Shown here: positions 4,293-62,199 of the stretch, in pieces
How the letters are laid out: every line of letters starts with the position of its first letter
How positions within the stretch are numbered: position 1 is the first letter of the stretch
Assembly: GCA_944322965.1 (NCBI GenBank)
Contig: CALUQR010000008.1
Coordinates: 4,418 to 68,417 of the forward strand
DNA from: Vulcanimicrobiota bacterium
GTDB taxonomy: Bacteria; Vulcanimicrobiota; Xenobia; Xenobiales; Xenobiaceae
Direction: 5' to 3'
DNA: 64,000 nt
Position numbers and translations under genes: made by a program
The notes under the pieces: generated by a model
Databases searched by the model: none
What the model was told of the DNA's origin: nothing
The model's input: the letters and a program-made list of their open reading frames with translations, nothing else

Positions 4293-4796
4293 ATGGGAGG
4301 GGCTATGAGTATGAACAACGAGCACTACCGGATGGCCCAAATCCATAGGGATCGGGGCAAGCGCCACTACGCGGCTAACGAGATCAAAGAGGCGGTAGCC
4401 GAGCTGACCGAGGCTTATAAGTTTGATCCTCGCGATCCGGAGATCCTATCCCTCTTGGCGGAGATCTACGGGGCGGCGGGCTTTATCGATCCGGCGGCCG
4501 ATCTCATCCAGAAGAGTCTGCGCGAGAACTTTAGCGACGTGCGCGGCTGGATCATGTTGGCTAATCTCTACGCTCAGAAAGGCGGCGCTTACCAGGAGTT
4601 AGCTCTGGAGCAGCTCAATCAGGCGGAGAACTTAGATCCCAAGCAATCGATGATCCCCTACTTGCGGGGCAATATCTGCGCTCGCCGCGGTCAGATAGAA
4701 GAGGCTAAGAACTATCTGCGCAAGGCGCTGGAGCTGGATCCTAAGAATATGTACGCTAAGCGCGACTTAGATATTTTGAATAAGCCCCCAGAGTAA
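4293..4796 (+). CDS. TPR-repeat protein
   Basis: Repeated 34-aa A/Y/L pattern (e.g. ANLYAQKGGAYQELALEQLNQAENLDP and ARRGQIEEAKNYLRKALELDP). The start is uncertain: ATGs at 4293, 4305 and 4311, with an SD GGGAGGGG at 4296-4302. Confidence 0.7.
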   Translation: MGGAMSMNNEHYRMAQIHRDRGKRHYAANEIKEAVAELTEAYKFDPRDPEILSLLAEIYGAAGFIDPAADLIQKSLRENFSDVRGWIMLANLYAQKGGAYQELALEQLNQAENLDPKQSMIPYLRGNICARRGQIEEAKNYLRKALELDPKNMYAKRDLDILNKPPE

Positions 4797-4823
4797 GAGG
4801 CTCTAAGGGACGCTAAAAAGGGT

Positions 4824-4851
4824 AGCCCTCCGCAAAGGGAGGGCTCTTTTC
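4824..4851. terminator. Bidirectional intrinsic terminator between convergent genes
   Basis: AGCCCTCC-GCAAAG-GGAGGGCT (8-bp stem) followed by CTTTTC. Confidence 0.6.
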
Positions 4852-4853
4852 AT

Positions 4854-5381
4854 TTAGATATTGAGACTCTCCAACTGGCTGACTTCATCTTTACTGATAC
4901 TAAAGCTCTCCACCCCGCCCTCATCATCTAGGCGCACCCACAATCCGTTGTAGACGTAGGCTTGGGGCAGCTCCTTATAGGGCTGACCCAGTTTAGTCTT
5001 GATGGTGGCCGCTTTGGAGTCGGGCCAGATCCCCTCTTTAGTGGAGCCTTGGTAAGCCACCCACTGCACGCCGTCTTTGAGGCCGCTACTATAGAGGACG
5101 ATACTGCCCACCGTATCGCGCAAGTAGGAGATCTCTAGCCCCCGCTGGGGGTACTGGACGATAACATGCTCCTTATTGAAGGGGTTATCGCTAACTATGG
5201 GGGGCGCTCCCAGGGCGGCCTCTACCTCTTGGCGGCTATCGAAGAGTTGGACCTCGGCGATCCCCTCGCCGGGCACGATAGCCCCCGGATTGGGGCCGGC
5301 GGGCGAATGTTGGGTACAGGCGCTCAAGAGACCTAGGGCTAAGCTAGCGGAGAGGATCAAAAGGGCGAGCGAGCGTTTCAA
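4854..5381 (-). CDS. Lipoprotein, function unknown
   Basis: Signal peptide with lipobox LLSAC. 175-aa ORF. Confidence 0.65.
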   Translation of the reverse strand: MKRSLALLILSASLALGLLSACTQHSPAGPNPGAIVPGEGIAEVQLFDSRQEVEAALGAPPIVSDNPFNKEHVIVQYPQRGLEISYLRDTVGSIVLYSSGLKDGVQWVAYQGSTKEGIWPDSKAATIKTKLGQPYKELPQAYVYNGLWVRLDDEGGVESFSISKDEVSQLESLNI

Positions 5382-29647: not shown

Positions 29648-30145
29648 CCTGCAAGAGCGTAATTAGGAATTCGGAATTCGTAATGCGTAATTGAGGGTTG
29701 CCGGCGGGAGGAGAGGTTGTGGCTCTAACTTTAGTTTCGTCGGTGACTTAAGGGCGAGAGGGCTTGGGGAAATATCTGGCGAGTTCCGGGGATTGCTTGG
29801 CTAGGGTGAAAATCGTTCTGGCGTGGCGCAGGGCGCCGGAAATGAGCTAGAGTGCAGGCTAAGGCGCGTTACGGGTTCGCGGGCTGCTTACGCGGAAGGA
29901 AGCGAAGTCAGTCGGCGAGTTTGCGTCAGCACTGTTTGAGCCGACAACTGAGCTGACCGAAGCCTGGTCGCCCGCTCGCCTGGACAGATTCCGAGCTCCG
30001 AGATTTATTCCAAGATGGAGGGCAGGTAGCGAAAGAAAGTGTCTCCCCACTTTCTGGAGCCTAGCTGCCCGCAATCGACGTAGAGCTCGGCTCGCATGGT
30101 CCAATTGGACAAGCGTCCTAAACTATCTCGGTCCATTAGTTACGG
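29648..30145. repeat. Composite repeat array B (inverted relative to the other arrays): heptamer tract, one long-form unit, a ~258-nt unique insert, then the palindrome
   Basis: 29659-29693 is CGTAATTAGGAATTCGGAATTCGTAATGCGTAATT. 29694-29817 is the reverse complement of the long-form core. GTCCAATTGGAC lies at 30099-30110, followed by AAGCGTCCTAAA. Confidence 0.85.
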
Positions 30146-41724: not shown

Positions 41725-42906
41725 CTACTTAGAAGCCAGAGCCTCGACGCCGGGCAACTGACGCCCCTCGATGAACTCTAAGGAAGCGCCGCCGCCAGTG
41801 GAGACGTGGGTGATCTTGGCGGCTAAGCCGGCCTGGGTGAGAGCGGCCACGGAGTCGCCGCCGCCCACTACGCTGCGAGCCTGAGAGTCGGCTACCGCCT
41901 GAGCTACGGCCCGAGTACCCTGATCGAAGGGCTTCTTCTCAAAGACGCCCATGGGACCATTCCAGAAGATGGTCTTGGCGCTGGCGATAATCTGGCCAAA
42001 CTTCTCCACCGTCTTGGGACCGATATCTAAGCCCATCTTGTCGGCGGGAATAGCCTCCACGTCGACTACCTGGTGGGGAGCGTCTTCCACTAACTCCTCG
42101 GCTACGACTACGTCTACGGGCAAGACGATCTGGGTCTTCGTACCCTTAGCCTTCTCTAAGATGCCCTGAGGCACGCTCAAATCGCCGTCGCAGAGGGACT
42201 TGCCGATCTCCAGACCCTGGACCTTCAAGAAGGGGAAGGCCATGCCGCCGCCCACTAAGAGGTAGTCGGCCTTGCCAATTAAGTTCTGCATAACCCCGAT
42301 CTTATCGGAGACCTTAGCTCCGCCCAAAAGGACGACGAAGGGGGACTGGGGATTATCTAAGAGCTGACCCAGCTCTCTAAGCTCCTTCTCCATCAAGAAG
42401 CCGGCTACGGCGGGCAAGTACTGGGCTACGCCCGTAGTGGAGGCGTGGGCCCGGTGGGCGGCGCCGAAAGCGTCGTTGACGTAGATCTCCGCCAAAGAGG
42501 CCAAATCTTTAGCGAACTGGGGATCGTTGTCCGTCTCTTGGGGATAGAAGCGCACGTTCTCCAATAAGAGGACCTGGCCGGGCTGCAGGGCGGCGGCCAT
42601 CTTCTGGACCTCCTCGCCGATGCAATCGGGAGCCATCTCTACGGGCTTCCCTAAGAGCTCATGTAAACGCAAAGCTACGGGGCGCAGGGAGTACTTGGGA
42701 TCCTTCTTCCCCTTGGGACGGCCCAGGTGGGACATCAAAATAACCGCCGCCCCATTCTCTAAAAGATAATTGATGGTAGGCAGAGCGGCCCGGATGCGGG
42801 TGTCGTCGGTCACCGTCTCCCCATTTAAAGGCACGTTGAAATCGACGCGCACTAAGACTTTCTTACCCTTAATATCGATATCGCGAACCGTCTTAAAGTC
42901 TTTCAT
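41725..42906 (-). CDS. pgk: Phosphoglycerate kinase
   Basis: RVDFNVP, SHLGRPKG and STGGGASLE motifs. Confidence 0.96.
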   Translation of the reverse strand: MKDFKTVRDIDIKGKKVLVRVDFNVPLNGETVTDDTRIRAALPTINYLLENGAAVILMSHLGRPKGKKDPKYSLRPVALRLHELLGKPVEMAPDCIGEEVQKMAAALQPGQVLLLENVRFYPQETDNDPQFAKDLASLAEIYVNDAFGAAHRAHASTTGVAQYLPAVAGFLMEKELRELGQLLDNPQSPFVVLLGGAKVSDKIGVMQNLIGKADYLLVGGGMAFPFLKVQGLEIGKSLCDGDLSVPQGILEKAKGTKTQIVLPVDVVVAEELVEDAPHQVVDVEAIPADKMGLDIGPKTVEKFGQIIASAKTIFWNGPMGVFEKKPFDQGTRAVAQAVADSQARSVVGGGDSVAALTQAGLAAKITHVSTGGGASLEFIEGRQLPGVEALASK

Positions 42907-53006: not shown

Positions 53007-53999
53007 GTGAAGAAGCAGACCCTGCTCCTAACTTTGCGCCGCCATTTCCGCTTCTGGGTCCTAGTAGTGGCCGATGTAGTACGCAATTTTATCCGGGACG
53101 ACTGCGCCTTTATGGCGGCCGGTATCGCCTTCTACGCCTTCCTCTCCCTCTTCCCCATGTGCCTAGTCCTAGTCTCCTTCTTCGGCTGGGTGCTCTCTAT
53201 CGATTGGATCCACCAGCAGGTAGTCTTGGGCTTCTCCCAACTGAATATCATCCCCTTAGAGGAAAAATCGGGCACGGGACTGACCTACACCAGCGAGTTA
53301 GTGCGCCAACTCCTGCCGGCTACTAGCGAATGGATCGTGCGTGAACTCTCCGTCCTGGCCGAACATATCGGGCGCAACGTCCTCATCTCCGTCGTCGTAG
53401 GCCTCTGGTCGGGCCGCCATATGTTTGTAGCTATGGAATATGGCTTACAGAAGATCTGGAACCTCAGGACCCAGCGCAATTGGTTCTCCAGTAACTTAGT
53501 GAGTATGTATCTCATCTTAGTTACGGGGCTAGTCTTCACCGTGCTCCTGACCTTCACCGGGGTGATGAGTATCGTCCAGAATGTGATCGCCAACTTCAAC
53601 TTGCCCAGCTTTATGGGCTTCTCTATCGACCAGGCCATGCTCTGGAATTGGGTAGTCTCCTGGATCATGATCCCCCTAGGGGCCAGCACCCTCTTCCTCA
53701 TGATGTACCGCCTCCTCCCCTCCGAGCCCCTCCCCGTAGCCTACCTCCTCCCGGGCGCCATCTTCTCCGGCCTAGCCTGGAAATTGTCGGGCCTAGCCTA
53801 CGTCACCTACGGCGAAAAATTCGGCCAAGTCTCCGCCTTCTACGGTTCAATCTGGTACCTCGTCGGCCTTATGACCTGGCTCTATATCGTAGCCGTCGTC
53901 TTCCTCCTAGGCGCCGAAGTAGTCCACGCCTACGCCTACCAACAAAAGCTCCAAACACACTTTTTTCGAATTCGGAATTCGGAATGCGGAGTGAGCTAG
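53007..53999 (+). CDS. YihY/BrkB-family membrane protein
   Basis: AAGIAFYAFLSLFP start and a 6-TM pattern. The last ~12 codons and the stop lie inside repeat array C. Confidence 0.8.
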   Translation: MKKQTLLLTLRRHFRFWVLVVADVVRNFIRDDCAFMAAGIAFYAFLSLFPMCLVLVSFFGWVLSIDWIHQQVVLGFSQLNIIPLEEKSGTGLTYTSELVRQLLPATSEWIVRELSVLAEHIGRNVLISVVVGLWSGRHMFVAMEYGLQKIWNLRTQRNWFSSNLVSMYLILVTGLVFTVLLTFTGVMSIVQNVIANFNLPSFMGFSIDQAMLWNWVVSWIMIPLGASTLFLMMYRLLPSEPLPVAYLLPGAIFSGLAWKLSGLAYVTYGEKFGQVSAFYGSIWYLVGLMTWLYIVAVVFLLGAEVVHAYAYQQKLQTHFFRIRNSECGVS

Positions 54000-54103
54000 C
54001 CGCCGAAGGCGGCTAGCAATGCGGAATGCGTAATGCGTAATGCGGAATTAGATGGCGCTTGTTAGTGGCTTAGCGGATCCGGAAATAGCTGGACACACGG
54101 GAG

Positions 54104-54383
54104 AATCGCTGGCAGTTTCACTGCCCTAAATCTAATTCGGAATGCGCTAGCCGCCGGGACGGCCGGCGGCAATTCGGAATGCTTAGTTCGTAATTCGGAA
54201 TTAAGTCTCTACTTGTTAATGACTTGGCGGATCCGGAAATAGCTGAGCATACGGGAAAATCGTTGGCAGTTTCACTGCCTTTTGAGGGCTCTGGTTTGGC
54301 GCTTTGATGCTGGCGCTCAGATCTTAGATTTGTGTTCTGTTCCCTCATGAAGGCCTTTAGGACGCTTGTCCAATTGGACCGCG
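54104..54383 (+). repeat. ~280-bp segment X, copy 1 (short unit + centre + palindrome), near-identical to 57802-58087
   Basis: Direct alignment by eye shows only a few substitutions across ~280 bp. Confidence 0.9.
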
Positions 54384-54579
54384 GCGCGCGCCGCACACCA
54401 AGACGATTTTCTCCCCAGCCAAGTAACCTGCGGAATCAGCCGGTCATTTTCCCAGCTATCTCGCCCCTAAGTCCCGCCAAAACAAAAGTTAGGGCCACAG
54501 CCTACCTTCCCGGCTGTAGCCCCTAATTCCGAATTACGAATTCCGAACTACGCATTGCCCCCCTGCCGCCAAGTAAGTC

Positions 54580-54609
54580 TTGCGACAACCAAGGTTCCGG
54601 TTGTATACT
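54580..54609 (+). promoter_or_regulatory. Putative sigma70 promoter of rpn copy 1
   Basis: TTGCGA, 18 nt, TATACT. The same arrangement is conserved upstream of copy 2. Confidence 0.5.
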
Positions 54610-54656
54610 ATCCCCAGCGATAACTTAACTTCGACACGTATAAAGGGGGGATAGAT

Positions 54657-55649
54657 TTGGGCCACGATTCTAGTTACAAGAAGTTTTTTAGTCGCACCGA
54701 TATGGTTGAGTCACTGGTGCGAGATTTTATTTCCGGTGATCTAGCCGACGAACTCGACTTTAAGACCCTGAAGCTGATGCCTACCGTTTTTCAAAAACAT
54801 GGACAGACGGAACGGCGTGGCGATCTTATTTGGCGGCTCAAATGGAGAGACGGTAGTCCTTGTCTTTTGGCCATACTTTTAGAGTTTCAGAGTACTATCG
54901 ATAAGAAGATGCTCTGTCGATTACTGGAATATGCCACTCTCTTCTTAGAGCAAACCTTGGACGATGATAAGAGCAAAGGGCTGTCTTTGCCGCAAATTTT
55001 GCCCATTGTGCTCTACAATGGCGCCAAACCTTGGAGCGCGCCTTGCGTTTATAACGAGTTGTCGGAGCGCGAAAGGCTAGCTTATGAGCGCGGCATTTGG
55101 GATTTCAAATACCATTTAATTGACATTCGCCACCTAGAAGAATCTCTAGTAGATAAAGCTAAAGGTATCAGCGCATGGATCTTTCGCTTTGAACGAGCTG
55201 CAAGTGTCCAGGATATGGAGCGACTCTGGAGAGTGATGTTCCGCGCTCTAAGGAATCCAGCTTATGAAAATTTGCGCCAAGAGATTATAATGTGGCTAGA
55301 GACCTGCGTCTTGCCAGTCCGCAAAATATCGGGCGCTAAAATAGTTATAGAACGTTTGAAGGAGGAAGAGAAGATGACCGTAGTTACCGCCGAAATGGAG
55401 GACTGGACCCTCCCCTACATCAACCAAGGAATCAAACAAGGCCGCGCCGAAGGTGAGGCACGTGGCCTCGCAGAGGGAGAACGTATAGGCTTGAGTAAGG
55501 GAAGACGCGAAGGCGAAGCCAAAGGCATAGCCGAGAAAGCGGCCCAAGTCATCCGCCAAATGATCGCTGAAGGTTTTGAAGATAATCTAATCGCCAAATT
55601 AGTCAGCGTTCCCTTATCCGAAGTCAAAAAACTACGTCTACAAATCTAA
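54657..55649 (+). CDS. Rpn-family recombination-promoting nuclease / putative transposase (YhgA-like PD-(D/E)XK N-domain, DUF4351-like C-tail), copy 1
   Basis: HDSSYKKFF...TLKL...GDLIWRL...LLEFQST...M..RLLEY parallels E. coli RpnA/YhgA. TTG start after GGGGGGA. GC looks lower than in the neighbouring genes. Confidence 0.88.
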   Translation: MGHDSSYKKFFSRTDMVESLVRDFISGDLADELDFKTLKLMPTVFQKHGQTERRGDLIWRLKWRDGSPCLLAILLEFQSTIDKKMLCRLLEYATLFLEQTLDDDKSKGLSLPQILPIVLYNGAKPWSAPCVYNELSERERLAYERGIWDFKYHLIDIRHLEESLVDKAKGISAWIFRFERAASVQDMERLWRVMFRALRNPAYENLRQEIIMWLETCVLPVRKISGAKIVIERLKEEEKMTVVTAEMEDWTLPYINQGIKQGRAEGEARGLAEGERIGLSKGRREGEAKGIAEKAAQVIRQMIAEGFEDNLIAKLVSVPLSEVKKLRLQI

Positions 55650-56239
55650 TTCGGAGTAGGCTAGCCGCCGGGACGGCGGCTTAGCAATGCGGAATGCTTA
55701 ATGCGTAATGCGGAGTGTTCCGGCGGAAAAACCGCCGGAACAATTTGGGATGCGTAATGCGTAGTTCGGAATTAGATGGCTCTTGTTAGTGGCTTAGCAG
55801 ATCCGGAAATAGCTGGACACACGAGAGAATCGCTGGAGGCTTCGCCTCCCTTGCGGCGCGCTCCGCGCCGCACACTCCCAGCGATTTCCCCCCAGCCAAG
55901 CTACCTTCGGAACCAGTCAGCAACTAACTCCTTGCCATCTCGCCCCTACCCCACCGCAAAAACTAAAGTTAGAACCACACCCTCTCCCTCAGCCGCGCCA
56001 CCCCCAATTACGCATTACGCATTCCTAATTCCGAATTGCCCTCCCGCCGCGTCCCTCCTAATTCCGAATTACGAATTCCGAACTACGCATTACCCCCACT
56101 ACCCTCAATTCCGAATTACGCACTCCGAATTACGCATTACCGCCTCCGGCGGCAACATAAGTCTTGCGGCAACTAAGGTTACGGTTGTATACTCTCTCTA
56201 GCGGAAACTTAACTTCGATACGCGCAAGGGGGGATAGAT
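55650..56239. repeat. Composite repeat array D: hairpins and heptamers, 1 short unit (+), GC hairpin, 1 long unit (-), long heptamer tracts, promoter
   Basis: 10-bp-stem hairpin GTTCCGGCGG-AAAAA-CCGCCGGAAC at 55717-55741. GCGGCGCG-CTC-CGCGCCGC at about 55853-55871. Heptamer tracts at 56006-56140. Confidence 0.9.
56164..56193 (+). promoter_or_regulatory. Putative sigma70 promoter of rpn copy 2
   Basis: TTGCGG, 18 nt, TATACT. Syntenic with 54580-54609. Confidence 0.5.
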
Positions 56240-57232
56240 TTGGGCCACGATTCTAGTTACAAGAAGTTCTTTAGTCGCACCGATATGGTTGAGTCACTGG
56301 TGCGAGATTTTATTTCCGGTGATCTAGCCGACGAACTCGACTTTAAGACCCTGAAGCTGATGCCTACCGTTTTTCAAAAACATGGACAGACGGAACGGCG
56401 TGGCGATCTTATTTGGCGGCTCAAATGGAGAGACGGTAGTCCTTGTCTTTTGGCCATACTTTTAGAGTTTCAGAGTACTATCGATAAGAAGATGCTCTGT
56501 CGATTACTGGAATATGCCACTCTCTTCTTAGAGCAAACCTTGGACGATGATAAGAGCAAAGGGCTGTCTTTGCCGCAAATTTTGCCCATTGTGCTCTACA
56601 ATGGCGCCAAACCTTGGAGCGCGCCTTGCGTTTATAACGAGTTGTCGGAGCGCGAAAGGCTAGCTTATGAGCGCGGCATTTGGGATTTCAAATACCATTT
56701 AATTGACATTCGCCACCTAGAAGAATCTCTAGTAGATAAAGCTAAAGGTATCAGCGCATGGATCTTTCGCTTTGAACGAGCCGCTAATGTTCAGGAGATG
56801 GAGCGACTTTGGAAAGTGATGTTCCGCGCTCTCAAGAATCCAGCTTATGAAAATTTGCGCCAAGAGATTATAATCTGGCTAGAAACCTGTGTCTTGCCAG
56901 TCCGCAAAATATCGGGGGCAAAGATCGTTGTAGAACGTTTAAAGGAGGAAGAAAAGATGACCGTAGTTACCGCCGAAATGGAAGACTGGACCCTCCCCTA
57001 CATCAACCAAGGAATCAGACAAGGCCACGCCGAGGGAAGATTAGAGGGTGAGCGCATAGGCGAACTTAGAGGAAGACGCGAAGGAGAGCGCATCGGGGAG
57101 GCTAAGGGGATAGCGGAAAAGGCGGCTCAGGTCATCCGCCAAATGATCGCTGAGGGATTTGAGGATAACTTAATTGCCAGATTAGTCAGCGTCCCCTTAT
57201 CAGATGTGGAAAAACTCCGCCTACAAATCTAA
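56240..57232 (+). CDS. Rpn-family recombination-promoting nuclease / putative transposase, copy 2
   Basis: 330 aa. The first ~181 codons are identical to copy 1 apart from one synonymous change. The C-terminal third diverges. Confidence 0.88.
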   Translation: MGHDSSYKKFFSRTDMVESLVRDFISGDLADELDFKTLKLMPTVFQKHGQTERRGDLIWRLKWRDGSPCLLAILLEFQSTIDKKMLCRLLEYATLFLEQTLDDDKSKGLSLPQILPIVLYNGAKPWSAPCVYNELSERERLAYERGIWDFKYHLIDIRHLEESLVDKAKGISAWIFRFERAANVQEMERLWKVMFRALKNPAYENLRQEIIIWLETCVLPVRKISGAKIVVERLKEEEKMTVVTAEMEDWTLPYINQGIRQGHAEGRLEGERIGELRGRREGERIGEAKGIAEKAAQVIRQMIAEGFEDNLIARLVSVPLSDVEKLRLQI

Positions 57233-58454
57233 TTAGGAGTAGGCTAGCCGCCGGGACGGCGGCTAGCAATGCGGAATGCGGAATGTTCCGGCGGAAAAAC
57301 CGCCGGAACAATTCGGAATGCGTAATGCGTAGTTCGGAATTAAGTGGCTCTTGTTAATGACTTGGCAGATCCGGAAGAAACTTGGCCCATGAGAGAATCG
57401 CTGCGGTTTCACCGCGCCAAAGCTAATCCGGAATGCTTAGTGCGTAATTCGGAATTAAGTTTCTGCTTGTTAATGGCTTGGCGGATCCGGAAGTAGCTTA
57501 AACTATGGAAGAATCGCACTGGGTGCTTGAGCGCCTAATTCTTAGGTTTGTGCTCCGTTACTTGAGTGAGGCTAAATCTAATTCGGAGTGCGTAATGCGC
57601 AATGCGGAGTTAAGTGACTATTGTTAGTAGCTTGGCAGATCCGAGAATAACTTGGCCTATGAGAGAATCGCTGCGGTTTCACTGCGCCGAATCTAATTCG
57701 GAATGCGGAATTCGGAATTAGGGAAGTAAGATGCCGCCTGAAGGCGGCGGTTTAAGTTGCAGCTTGTTGGTAACTTGGCAGATCCGAAAGTAGCTGAGTA
57801 CACGGGAGAATCGCTGGCAGTTTCACTGCCTTTAGTCTAATTCGGAATGCGCTAGCCGCCGGGACGGCCGGCGGCAATTCGGAATGCTTAGTTCGTAATT
57901 CGGAACTAAGTCTCTACTTGTTAATGACTTGGCGGATCCGGAAATAGCTGAGCATACGGGAAAATCGTTGGCAGTTTCACTGCCTTTTGAGGGCTCTGGT
58001 TTGGCGCTTTGATGCTGGCGCTCAGATCTTAGATTTGTGTTCTGTTCCCTCATGAAGGCCTTTAGGACGCTTGTCCAATTGGACCGCGCGGGCTGCGGCT
58101 AACGCACTCCTAATTCCGCATTGTTTCCCCGCCAAGCCACTCACGGAATCAGCCGGTCATTTCCCCAGCCGTCTCGCCCCTAACTCCTGCCGAATCCCCA
58201 GTTAGAGCCATAACCTCTCCCCTGGCCGCGCCACCCCCAATTACGCATCACGCATTCCTAATTCCGAATTGATCTTCCCCCCAGCCAAGCCCCCTCGGAA
58301 CCAGTCAGCAACTAACTCCTTGCCATCTCGCCCCTACCCCACCACAAAAACTAAAGTTAGAGCCACAACCTCTCCCCCTGCCGCGCCTCCCCAATTACGC
58401 ATTACGCATTCCTAATTCCGAATTGCCCTCCCGCCGCGCCACCCCAATTCCGAA
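57233..58454. repeat. Composite repeat array E: 5 short-form units (+), centre segment, palindrome, 2 long-form units (-) and heptamer tracts running into the whiA 3' end
   Basis: GATCCG(G/A)A cores at about 57370, 57484, 57630, 57781 and 57935. GTCCAATTGGAC at 58072-58083. Long cores at about 58100-58260 and 58270-58410. Confidence 0.9.
57802..58087 (+). repeat. ~280-bp segment X, copy 2
   Basis: Near-identical to 54104-54383. Confidence 0.9.
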
Positions 58455-59411
58455 TTACGAATTCCGAATTACGCATTGTTGTAATCGGCGGTTGAGGGTG
58501 GTGCGGGAGAGGGGTGGATCGCAAAGTTGGCAGAGTTCGCTGAGGGTGGCTTCGGGGTTTTCTAATCTCAGGCGGGCTACGTTTTGGAGTTGGGGCGACA
58601 GTTGGTCGAGGGCGCCGCTCTCTTGTAATTCTCGGAGCTTGGCGATCTGGCGGGCGGCGGCTAGGCTGGAGCGGGCGATATTGGCGCTTTCGGCGTTGAC
58701 GCGGCGGCGCACTTCGTTGCGAGTCTCCTTGAGGGCCCGCACCTCTTCGAATTGGAGTCGCGCCAGTTGGGCTCCGATGACGCTCAGAGCTTGGGCCACC
58801 TCTTCGGCCCGTTTGAGGCTAACTACCCAACGCCTACGCCGTTGGGCCATTTGGGGGTTAAACCCCTCTAACTCTAGGGCGATCTTGACCTTCTCAGCTA
58901 AATAAAGCCGGGGCAGGGCCCACTCTAATAGGTACCCTTTCTGAGGGTCGCTCAAAGCCCCAAAGCGCAAAAAGAGGGCCCCCAACCAATGGCGCCGGCA
59001 ACAGAGTTTGAGGGTCAGATTCTTGTGGGGTCCCAAGCTAAAGTGGAGCTCTTCCCGTTCCTCAGCCTGATCTCCAGAGGTGCGGGTAGCTTGATGGCTC
59101 AGACAGTAGTGCAAGGTCCGGCGCACTTTGCTCAATTTGGGTAGGTCGATAAGTTTTAAGATATAGCGGCTAGCCACCCGTCCGGAGCGGGTCCAGAGGA
59201 ACTCTATCTCTAGGCTGCGCAAGACCTTAATAGCCCATTGGGCCAATTCTAGGGAGCTAAAGACTAAGACCGGCCCCGGATAAGAGCGCAGGGTGCGAGC
59301 CCCTTCCAAAAGGGCGGCTAAGATATAGCGCCGACAGCAGGAAGGGGGCCGATGGCGGGCGATCTGGGCCCGCACTTGACTGGCAAAAGAGGGCTGGCGC
59401 TCGGAGCTAAT
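58455..59411 (-). CDS. whiA: DNA-binding protein WhiA (probable non-AUG start)
   Basis: C-terminal HTH LSELCQLCDPPLSRTTLNRRL. The N-terminal SFASQVRAQIA...CC..Y matches the WhiA N-terminus (B. subtilis MSFASETKKEL...) but lies upstream of the first GTG (59375). The frame opens at 59423, and the only candidate start is the ATT at 59411. Confidence 0.8.
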   Translation of the reverse strand: MSSERQPSFASQVRAQIARHRPPSCCRRYILAALLEGARTLRSYPGPVLVFSSLELAQWAIKVLRSLEIEFLWTRSGRVASRYILKLIDLPKLSKVRRTLHYCLSHQATRTSGDQAEEREELHFSLGPHKNLTLKLCCRRHWLGALFLRFGALSDPQKGYLLEWALPRLYLAEKVKIALELEGFNPQMAQRRRRWVVSLKRAEEVAQALSVIGAQLARLQFEEVRALKETRNEVRRRVNAESANIARSSLAAARQIAKLRELQESGALDQLSPQLQNVARLRLENPEATLSELCQLCDPPLSRTTLNRRLQQCVIRNS

Positions 59412-62199
59412 CTTCCTCCTCCTTTAGGTCCTCTTCCGTGGAGTCGGTAGGCAAGTTCTCGTAGAAATCGGTATAATCTTCGCTTTCTACCTCGCGCTCC
59501 TGGTCCTCGTCCGCCTCTGACAGTTGGGCCGCCCCTTGCGCTTGGAGGGCGGTCACGCTCTCCGCCTGGGGCTCTGTCTCGGGCAGCTCTTCTAACTGCA
59601 GATCCTTAGTCACTACGGGGGCTACGCCAATTACCCGGTCCTCTTCGGCCACATTGATAAACTTGACCCCCGAGTTACCGCGGTGGCGCAAGCTCACCCC
59701 CTGGACGGAGGTGCGCAAGGTCACCCCTTGCAGGGTGGAGACCATCAATTGGCCGTGGGGATCGACTACTAAGGCCGCAGCCACCGGCCCCGTCTTGGGG
59801 GTAACTCTCATCCCCCACACTCCGCGCGCGCGCCGCCCTTTATAGTTGAACTCGCTCAAACGGAGCCGCGTCCCCATCCCGCGCTCACTGACTAAGAGCA
59901 ACTGCCCGCCGTGGGTATCGGAACCTAAACCCACGATAGAGTCGCCCGGCCAGAGGGTAATACTCAAAACCCCGCGCGCGCTGCGCCCTTGGAGGCGCAC
60001 TGAGGACTCGGCAAAACGCAGGACCCGCCCTTGGGCGGTCACGATAAAGAGCGAAGGCTTGGCGCTCGGTTGGGCGGCTTCAGCTTCGGCTGCGGCCTCC
60101 TCTTCGGCGCTAGCCCCCTCCTCTAAGGCCCCAGACTCCTCGACGTTAGTAAGCTCTTCGCCCTCCTCTAAGGCCGACTCTTCGCCCTCAGACTCTTCGG
60201 CCGTAGGCGCCTCGCTCTCTTCAGCCTCCCCTTCCCAACTAGAGTAGAGGGCGCTAAGCAGGGCGTCCCCTTCCGTTAAGATGAGGGCCCGCTTCCCGCG
60301 CGAGGGAATATGGAGGAATTCCGCTAAGGGGGTGCGCTTAATATACCCTTGTTGGGTGAGGGTAATGATGGAGCCGCTAGTTACGGCCGAGTCCAGAGGT
60401 ATAACTACTACCACCTTCTCGCCGGGCGCCAAGTTGAGCAGGTTGACTAGAGCCATCCCCATCGAGCCCCGCTTATTGCTGGGCAGTTCGTAGACCTTCA
60501 ACTTGTAGATGCGCGCCTGGTCGGTCAGGAAATAGAGCGTATCGTGGGCCCGGCAGGTGAAGAGCTGGACTAAGGAGTCGTCCTGCTTCAATTTCAGACT
60601 GCTGCGCCCCCGCCCTCCGCGCCCTTGGGCCCGGTACTCGGAGAGTCCTACCCGCTTAATGTAGCCGGTGCGGGACATAGTAACTACCATCTGTTCGTTA
60701 CTAATGAGATCTTCGATGGCGATCTCTTCCCCTTCGGCGGAGAAGATACGCGTCCGCCGAGGGTCGGAGTAGCGCATCTGCAGTTGGACTAACTCGTCGC
60801 GAATAGCCCCATCCAATTTGCGGCTATCCCCTAAGAGCTCTTGGCAGTAGGCGATAGTGCGCAATAAGTTCTGGTGCTCGGCGCTAAAACGCTCAAATTC
60901 TAGGCCGGTCAAGCGCTGCAGGCGCATATCTAAGATAGCTTGGGCCTGGATCTCGCTGAAGGCGTAAGTCTCCATCAGCTGGTTGCGGGCGCTATCGACG
61001 GTCGCTGAGTTTTCGATAATCTCAATAATCTCGTCGATATGTTCCAAAGCTTTTAAGAGGGCCTGGACGATATGGTCGCGGGCCAGAGCCTTATCCAGTT
61101 CGTACTGGGTACGGCGGCGCACCACTTGGCGGCGGTGGTCCAGGTAGAGGGAGAGGGCCTCTTTTAAGCTTAAAAGGCGGGGCACGTCTTGGACTAAGGC
61201 CAGCATGATGACGCTATAATTAGTCTGCAGGCGCGTATGGGCTAAGAGCCTATTGAGGACGACTTTGGCGTTGGCATTTTGGGCCAGCTCGATGACGATG
61301 CGCATCCCCTTGCGGGAGGACTCGTCGCGCAGATCGCTGATGCCAGTGAGGGTCCCCTCATTGACTTTGGCGGCGATCTCCTCTACCAACTTGGCCTTAT
61401 TGACCTGGTAGGGTATCTCGGTGACGATAATAGCCTGTTTGCCGGGGCGCACCTCTTCGATATTAGTTACCGAGCGCACCTTAATAGAGCCTCGCCCGCT
61501 GCGGTAGGCCTCGCGGATCCCATTCTGACCGCAGATAATAGCTCCGGTGGGGAAATCGGGGCCGGGGATATAGCCCATCAATTCTTCGACGCTAATTTCC
61601 GGCTTCTCTAAGAGGGCCAGGACCCCATTTAAGACCTCGCGCAAGTTGTGGGGGGGTATCTTAGTGGCCATCCCCACGGCGATCCCTTCGGAGCCGTTAA
61701 TAATGAGGTTGGGCAATAAGGCGGGGAGCACCACCGGCTCTTGGGTAGAATTATCGAAATTGGGACGCCAATCGACCGTATTCTTGCCCAGATCGCGGAT
61801 CATCTCCATAGAGATACGGGCCAATTTGGCCTCCGTATAGCGCATGTGGGCGGGCGAGTCGCCATCGACGGAGCCGAAGTTACCCTGAGGCCAGACTAGG
61901 GGGTAGCGCGTATTGAAGGGCTGAGCTAAGCGCACCATAGCGTCGTAGACGGCGCTATCGCCATGGGGATGGTAGCGGGCGATGACATTACCCACCGTGG
62001 AGGCCGACTTGCGGAACTTGCGGTCGGGGGTAATATGCTCCTCGAACATGGTGTAGAGGATGCGCCGGTGCACGGGCTTAAAACCGTCGCGCACGTCGGG
62101 CAGGGCTCTAGCGACGATGACGCTCATGGCGTAATCGACGTAGGCCTCCTTCATCCCATCCTCAATAGAGAGGGGCAGTATCTGCTGACGCTCACTCAT
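59407..62199 (-). CDS. gyrA: DNA gyrase subunit A (full length, with an acidic insertion in the CTD and an acidic tail)
   Basis: [18 protein letters not shown], catalytic Tyr in HMRYTEAKL, and a GyrA-box-like QGRGGRG at the start of the beta-pinwheel CTD. Confidence 0.95.
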   Translation of the reverse strand: MSERQQILPLSIEDGMKEAYVDYAMSVIVARALPDVRDGFKPVHRRILYTMFEEHITPDRKFRKSASTVGNVIARYHPHGDSAVYDAMVRLAQPFNTRYPLVWPQGNFGSVDGDSPAHMRYTEAKLARISMEMIRDLGKNTVDWRPNFDNSTQEPVVLPALLPNLIINGSEGIAVGMATKIPPHNLREVLNGVLALLEKPEISVEELMGYIPGPDFPTGAIICGQNGIREAYRSGRGSIKVRSVTNIEEVRPGKQAIIVTEIPYQVNKAKLVEEIAAKVNEGTLTGISDLRDESSRKGMRIVIELAQNANAKVVLNRLLAHTRLQTNYSVIMLALVQDVPRLLSLKEALSLYLDHRRQVVRRRTQYELDKALARDHIVQALLKALEHIDEIIEIIENSATVDSARNQLMETYAFSEIQAQAILDMRLQRLTGLEFERFSAEHQNLLRTIAYCQELLGDSRKLDGAIRDELVQLQMRYSDPRRTRIFSAEGEEIAIEDLISNEQMVVTMSRTGYIKRVGLSEYRAQGRGGRGRSSLKLKQDDSLVQLFTCRAHDTLYFLTDQARIYKLKVYELPSNKRGSMGMALVNLLNLAPGEKVVVVIPLDSAVTSGSIITLTQQGYIKRTPLAEFLHIPSRGKRALILTEGDALLSALYSSWEGEAEESEAPTAEESEGEESALEEGEELTNVEESGALEEGASAEEEAAAEAEAAQPSAKPSLFIVTAQGRVLRFAESSVRLQGRSARGVLSITLWPGDSIVGLGSDTHGGQLLLVSERGMGTRLRLSEFNYKGRRARGVWGMRVTPKTGPVAAALVVDPHGQLMVSTLQGVTLRTSVQGVSLRHRGNSGVKFINVAEEDRVIGVAPVVTKDLQLEELPETEPQAESVTALQAQGAAQLSEADEDQEREVESEDYTDFYENLPTDSTEEDLKEEED

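Follow-up and report, generated by a model that had tools for sequence, protein, structure and literature searches.

Tandem rpn genes of an uncultured Vulcanimicrobiota bacterium as predicted gene-within-gene toxin-antitoxin modules

In Escherichia coli, rpn genes encode a small protein, RpnS, which is produced from an internal start and neutralises the full-length nuclease RpnL (Zhong et al., 2023, PMC10400941), a model that is also summarised in a commentary by Koonin; our literature search for later work on RpnL/RpnS found nothing further. RpnS binds its own RpnL and blocks both nuclease activity and toxicity, the block of cleavage having been seen in vitro (PMC10400941). In rpnA, the ribosome-binding site (RBS) lies in codons K240/E241 and the proven start is M244 (PMC10400941); we read this internal start in strain MG1655 as AAGGAG, 6 nucleotides (nt), ATG. 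Four-residue repeats that begin 8-20 residues past the Met set RpnS-RpnL specificity, and plasmid-borne Rpn gives phage protection (PMC10400941). Here we analyse two tandem rpn genes on a 64,000-nt stretch of DNA (the window) from a Vulcanimicrobiota bacterium. An earlier note on this DNA had described the E. coli gene-within-gene system, accurately (Zhong et al., 2023, PMC10400941), and had proposed that the two genes fit the RpnL/RpnS model. We find every component of that model that can be assessed from sequence to be present, namely a PF04754 domain with the essential residues, an internal Shine-Dalgarno (SD) sequence and ATG under selection, four-residue repeats and a tail with the matching TIGR01784 positions, and we consider it likely that each tandem gene is a gene-within-gene toxin-antitoxin module of the Rpn family. 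The locus is a further example of the arrangement known from E. coli and brings no new mechanism. The features on which this reading is based are as follows.

54657-55649, forward strand: rpn copy 1, full-length RpnL of 330 amino acids (aa) with a TTG start, PD-(D/E)XK nuclease domain plus tail
56240-57232, forward strand: rpn copy 2, full-length RpnL of 330 aa
54642-54650, forward strand: imperfect SD sequence AAAGGGGGG, 6 nt before the RpnL TTG of copy 1
55359-55365, forward strand: internal SD AAGGAGG of copy 1, in codons K235-E236-E237
55374-55649, forward strand: predicted rpnS of copy 1, 91 aa, in frame from M240
56942-56948, forward strand: internal SD AAGGAGG of copy 2, -11.7 kcal/mol
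56957-57232, forward strand: predicted rpnS of copy 2, 91 aa

Like E. coli RpnA (YhgA; RpnAS, PDB 7TH0), the window proteins combine a PF04754 domain and the essential residues with an AAGGAG-type internal SD, and the internal ATG occupies almost the same codon (M244 in RpnA, M240 here), both small products beginning with Met-Thr. The two also share a match to the C-terminal TIGR01784 positions, and the repeat onset at residue 18 falls inside the 8-20 range of Zhong et al. RpnAS has its repeats in a long helix ahead of two short ones, and an AlphaFold2 (AF2) model of moderate confidence predicts the same order here. Unlike RpnA, the window genes carry a tail of 91 aa with nine units (RpnAS has 49 aa) without detectable pairwise similarity between the tails, start their long form at TTG, and are known from sequence alone, their uncultured host being represented by metagenome assemblies. 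In E. coli RpnC/RpnCS and C. difficile Rpn, the number of units varies by strain and decides which RpnS neutralises which RpnL. Several rpn copies per genome and tandem duplications are common to these multi-repeat systems (Zhong et al., 2023) and to ours, although the tandem copies here are equal in unit count (9) with a shifted order. Stand-alone RpnS-like genes (ypaA/RpnESs; 'DUF4351' proteins) show repeats followed by a helix-turn-helix (HTH)-like end, which is the same layout as that of the window tail. The window itself holds no stand-alone rpnS-like copy; elsewhere, P0174, which has 84 aa and bears the name 'predicted transposase YdaD' in one source, is a separate small gene call with this layout. 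A second candidate, P0144 (91 aa, starting at the internal Met), lies 47 nt from a contig end and was therefore rejected as an artefact.

Nuclease domain and internal start

The PF04754 profile (Transposase_31, YhgA-like) matches residues 3-200 with E-values of 1.3e-24 for copy 1 and 2.3e-24 for copy 2 (87 bits against a cut-off of 21), and BLASTP against E. coli RpnA gives an E-value of 2e-14 with 28% identity, restricted to the nuclease domain. Residues D4, D56, E76, Q78 and R88 align to RpnA D11, D63, E82, Q84 and R94, and D56, E76, Q78 and R88 are invariant across 22 homologs. In RpnA, the substitutions D11A, D63A, E82A and Q84K abolish all three phenotypes, and Q84A and R94A lose recombination while toxicity is kept (Kingston et al., 2017, PMC5350276). 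At the level of sequence comparison, both membership of the Rpn family and retention of the essential residues are established. The first ATG (M16) comes only after D4, and an active long form must therefore begin at the TTG. The sequence AAAGGGGGG is conserved upstream of all paralogs, in every one of which RpnL starts with TTG or GTG. Assemblies call these genes as single open reading frames (ORFs) of 303-341 aa, and several of the calls made for them in other assemblies, at 303-315 aa, leave out the N-terminus with the essential Asp. The TTG/GTG start behind AAAGGGGGG is weak compared with the ATG of RpnS behind AAGGAGG, which fits an antitoxin produced in excess over its toxin.

The earlier note had placed AAGGAGG 8 nt before an in-frame ATG at 55374 (codon 240) in copy 1 and a matching signal before an ATG at 56957 in copy 2. 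The first set of coordinates is right to the base, as the spacer between AAGGAGG and the ATG at 55374-55376 is 8 nt and (55374-54657)/3 = 239 puts that ATG in frame as codon 240, and direct reading bears out the second, with AAAGGAGG spanning 56941-56948 and the ATG at 56957 again being codon 240. The predicted internal-start product of copy 1 has 91 aa and reads MTVVTAEMEDWTLPYINQGIK...LRLQI. We surveyed 319 in-frame internal ATGs in 42 long ORFs of the window by their pairing energy with the anti-SD sequence. The two rpn sites rank second and third of the 319 (-12.1 and -11.7 kcal/mol), and just three of all sites reach -11. The median pairing energy was -5.9 kcal/mol at the starts of the 42 ORFs, each taken by rule to be the first start codon that follows a stop, compared with -2.4 kcal/mol at internal ATGs; ORF starts in the window thus tend to have SD-like motifs, and SD pairing is meaningful in this organism. 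Counting both strands, there are only 12 AAGGAGG sites in the 64 kb. Judged from the window only, the chance that the rpn signal is a coincidence is roughly 1%, and the signal appears twice because the gene itself is duplicated. Compared with shuffled controls, the RNA has less structure at the internal start, where the SD and the ATG are both unpaired (z +0.77 and +2.37).

A change from AAGGAGGAA to AAAGAAGAA would destroy the SD silently, keeping K-E-E, and TVVTAEMEDWTLPYINQGIK would be an N-terminal peptide of the predicted RpnS that trypsin cannot yield from RpnL, since a cut after K239 leaves MTVV... The strongest internal SD of the window belongs to an unrelated 393-aa ORF (41725-42906, minus strand), where GAGGAGGT stands 8 nt before an ATG at 42600, codon 103 of that ORF (-12.8 kcal/mol).

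Selection on the internal start across relatives

A set of 12 close paralogs from one group of metagenomes, with 73-100% protein identity, keeps AAGGAGGAAGA...ATG in all 12 sequences. Synonymous change is seen in 67% of the conserved degenerate codon columns of this set and in none of the three SD codons (K, E, E), with the Leu codon before the SD and the codons of the third Glu and the Lys after it varying; taken alone, this codon evidence is modest, at about p 0.04. Three distant homologs (36-38% identity) encode differing residues at this position (LEEVDDM, REVDAM and LEAPQM) and all have GGAGG, exactly 8 nt and ATG, the site having in each of them a stronger SD than any other in-frame start that was scanned in the second half of the gene. 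M240 itself is invariant in 22 of 22 aligned homologs. A scan of genome contigs returned three distant Clostridia relatives only; in two of these (L001 and L002) the best of the scanned in-frame ATGs precedes the repeats with a weak SD (-5.9).

A metagenome scan returned 80 loci, of which 63 are distinct sequences with complete ORFs, 28-39% identical. Of these 63 relatives, 62 have ATG and one has GTG as the codon aligned to M240. Glu occupies position -4 in 62, and its codon is GAG in all 62, compared with 902 of 1940 (46%) for the other Glu codons of the same genes. On either side of this codon G prevails, closing codon -5 in 45/63 relatives against a background of 36% and opening codon -3 in 52/63 against 35%. 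The median anti-SD duplex at the internal start is -11.4 kcal/mol, against -3.1 kcal/mol at 277 other in-frame ATGs, and the internal start has the best internal SD of its gene in 58 of the 63 relatives, where 13.9 were expected. Synonymous sites are saturated at this divergence and neighbouring codons differ widely.

Constraint on the protein does not account for the exclusive use of GAG, and the codon data show selection on the internal SD and ATG at the level of the nucleotides themselves. These comparative data remove the doubt about coincidence that a single window leaves. We conclude that the internal SD and ATG very probably form a functional initiation signal, one that is conserved over this Rpn branch. 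More speculatively, the family-wide codon pattern xxG GAG Gxx, 8 nt, ATG might be used to recognise internal antitoxin starts in general from sequence alone.

The repeat tail and the two copies

Within the tail, xGxx units begin at residue 18, with G at positions 19, 23, ... 51, and are followed by a conserved end.

55425-55532, forward strand: nine 4-residue units of copy 1, QGIK QGRA EGEA RGLA EGER IGLS KGRR EGEA KGIA
57008-57115, forward strand: nine-unit tract of copy 2, QGIR QGHA EGRL EGER IGEL RGRR EGER IGEA KGIA
55533-55646, forward strand: conserved tail end of copy 1, predicted to comprise the end of the long helix and two short helices, HTH-like

Among 18 distinct tails of the close clade, the number of xGxx units between the conserved flanks ranges from 6 to 11, so hypervariability of the repeat tract is evident from the sequences. 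Tail residues 39-87 match TIGR01784 positions 225-273 (E 2.6e-4) and RpnAS residues 5-45 match positions 227-271, the same C-terminal region of the profile. The description of the tail as DUF4351-like in the earlier note found no support: PF14261 has no match at E <= 1 in the window tail, in four other tails that were scanned or in RpnAS.

The two copies are identical over 500 nt (bases 54690-55189), and about 530 nt of their 5' part are identical but for one base (54686), while the 3' third differs by 10-45%. The earlier note had located the greatest difference just after the internal start, and the mismatch peak indeed lies at 55440-55539, with 46 mismatches per 100 columns; it arises because of two compensating 12-nt (4-residue) indels in the repeat tract. 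The detail of that difference has to be corrected, as the copies diverge in the order and sequence of units and not in their count: both have nine, copy 2 having one unit fewer early and one more late. This mosaic points to gene conversion in the nuclease half or to an exchange of tail cassettes. Given identical nuclease halves with different repeat tracts, the copies are predicted to form two non-cross-reacting pairs. It is tempting to speculate, although we regard it as rather unlikely, that the tandem copies constitute a 'constant toxin, variable antitoxin' cassette pair in which gene conversion probably preserves the identity of the nuclease halves.

Two further observations concern rpn lineages and composition. 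The contig (L025) of P0055, a 38%-identical homolog, carries a second ORF (4612-4875, minus strand), cut by the contig end, and the tail that it encodes shares 84% identity with the window protein over residues 245-328, which indicates two divergent rpn lineages in one genome. The rpn genes have a GC content of 47% compared with 56.5% for the window, and their codon usage differs too.

Proposed mechanism, alternatives and genomic context

By homology with the E. coli systems we infer that RpnS of the window genes is translated separately and forms a complex with RpnL, that RpnL is toxic and is neutralised by RpnS, and that the modules act in phage defence. RpnL (330 aa), predicted to be a PD-(D/E)XK DNA endonuclease with a C-terminal helical tail, would be made at a low level from the weak TTG behind its imperfect SD. 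Independent starts at the ATGs at 55374 and 56957, behind a perfect AAGGAGG, would give a 91-aa RpnS with the same sequence as the RpnL tail, more efficiently than RpnL is made and perhaps also from a short transcript off an internal promoter. RpnS may then pair with the tail of its own RpnL via the long helix of xGxx repeats and thereby block the nuclease, with the repeat tract setting which RpnS fits which RpnL. Release of RpnL, e.g., on phage infection, would lead to DNA damage.

Two alternatives would deny the internal signal any role in initiation. The SD-like motif and the Met might be by-products of constraint on a Lys-Glu-Glu...Met linker, with no separate product, given that AAGGAGG simply encodes K-E-E and that the stronger internal SD of the unrelated ORF (42600, -12.8 kcal/mol) shows that coincidences occur. 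However, a protein-level constraint does not account for GAG in 62 of 62 relatives, GAA being used equally elsewhere, nor for a bias towards G in both flanking codons despite the different residues that they encode; the 8-nt spacing is fixed in three distant homologs, no other internal SD is stronger in 58 of 63 genes, and RpnA has a proven start at the homologous position, so that we consider this explanation very unlikely. The idea that internal SD-like sequences pause elongating ribosomes has been published and is contested. A pause between nuclease domain and tail that aids folding, instead of initiation, would suit the location of the motif exactly at the domain boundary, yet it would need no start codon, and ATG or GTG is found in 63 of 63 relatives. 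The constant 8-nt spacing in the four lineages inspected and the unstructured local RNA, as at true starts, also speak against a pause site, which we judge to be the least likely of all the alternatives.

A different possibility accepts that the small protein is made and assigns it a main role other than that of an antitoxin, either as an HTH autoregulator of the rpn promoter or as a specificity subunit on which RpnL activity depends. The end of the tail resembles HTH domains in Foldseek searches, where recombinase, LuxR and IstA HTH domains match over about 33-35 residues with a root-mean-square deviation of 0.5-1.4 A and non-significant E-values, and there are weak HTH and invertase profile matches, those in PADLOC-DB 2023 being weak 'putative invertase' matches only. 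Zhong et al. also remarked on an HHpred relation of RpnS to HTH motifs, and many antitoxins are repressors as well (PMC10400941). In E. coli, however, cleavage in vitro is blocked by the small protein, which binds to RpnL (PMC10400941), the variability of the repeats matches a protein-protein specificity interface, and nothing in our analysis points to an operator site. A non-antitoxin main role therefore appears improbable to us, whereas an HTH-regulator function as an additional role of a small protein that acts as antitoxin is plausible.

The transcription signals that may serve the genes, and the hairpins behind copy 1, are listed below.

54580-54609, forward strand: candidate promoter for the full-length copy 1 transcript, TTGCGA-18-TATACT, from a consensus scan, largely conserved before copy 2
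55264-55291, forward strand: candidate internal promoter of copy 1, ATGAAA-16-TATAAT, about 83 nt before the internal ATG
56847-56874, forward strand: candidate internal promoter of copy 2, ATGAAA-16-TATAAT
55660-55740, forward strand: two strong GC-rich hairpins after the copy 1 stop, terminator-like, with no T run

The consensus scan found 5 promoter sites where 3.4 were expected. At the internal promoter candidate, the sequence TATGAAAATTTGCG.C.AGAGATTATAAT is invariant save for two positions in the 12 paralog sequences, with neighbouring synonymous sites varying. The copy 1 hairpins fold with -43.1 kcal/mol (z -3.29), and 0 of 200 shuffles fold as well. Hairpin pairs without a T run stand after each rpn stop (55660-55740 and 57245-57320), with the sequences GCCGCCGGGACGGCGGC and GTTCCGGCGGAAAAACCGCCGGAAC, those of copy 2 coming from reading of the sequence.

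Several results weigh against a toxin-antitoxin module at this locus. The whole protein scores 46.6 bits (E 3.9e-12) against NCBIfam TIGR01784 and does not reach the curated cut-off of 52.1; as the score is just below it, this points to a divergent branch of the Rpn family, with the homology clear. BLASTP of the window tail against RpnAS gives nothing. The AF2 model of the tail (helices at 13-65, 70-77 and 81-90), with which the full-length model agrees, is of moderate confidence (pLDDT, the predicted local distance difference test, of 65); its Foldseek search has no significant match, and the RpnAS structure 7TH0 is absent from the top 50. Because the 63 relatives share a phylogeny, the codon statistics suggest more independent events than there are, and the nominal probabilities come out too low. 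As a consensus match only, the internal promoter is a weak candidate, and sigma-70-like sites are not enriched upstream of the internal start in the 63 relatives. Finally, the neighbours in the window are housekeeping genes (truD and a BrkB-like gene on one side, whiA and gyrA on the other) and not a defence island. Of the other structure searches, Foldseek with the full-length model gave PD-(D/E)XK matches, none of them significant, and a sequence search of the PDB with the full protein gave nothing relevant.

In favour of the module, some paralogs elsewhere adjoin restriction-modification genes (type I hsdM/hsdS, N6/N4 DNA methyltransferase). Defence-type genes lie beside paralogs and a distant homolog at L017 (1-2632), L019 (4882-5667) and L026 (5125-6993), and include a giant Eco57I/SNF2-helicase protein beside a relaxase. 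Dispersed intergenic repeats, made of heptamer arrays (AATTACG, AATGCGT, AATTCCG) and 90-300-nt units, flank both rpn genes (53968-54640, 55642-56230 and 57225-58478), and the same repeat family surrounds rpn paralogs at unrelated loci (L010, L016, L017, L019 and L022-L025); assembly contigs often terminate in these repeats. We considered rpn with its flanking repeats as a mobile unit and rejected this, as the family also occurs at 1-779 and 29655-30122 of the window without a visible rpn gene, away from the rpn pair, and is therefore a general dispersed intergenic repeat. In the gyrA product (59407-62199, minus strand, 930 aa) the acidic insert and the C-terminal extension, rich in Glu, Ala and Ser, are unusually long, and an Rfam search of the window returned one transfer RNA only.

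If the tandem genes are toxin-antitoxin modules as we propose, they would extend the internally encoded antitoxin to a divergent Rpn branch in an uncultured bacterium. The comparative sequence data show strong selection on the internal RBS over the whole branch, with its 63 relatives, beyond the two species tested experimentally, and the predicted 91-aa product merits its own annotation. With identical toxin halves and differing tails, the tandem pair offers a natural test case for RpnS-RpnL specificity. Should the two RpnS proteins prove not to be cross-neutralising, specificity would lie in the sequence or register of the units and not in their number alone, which would extend the repeat-number rule of E. 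coli.

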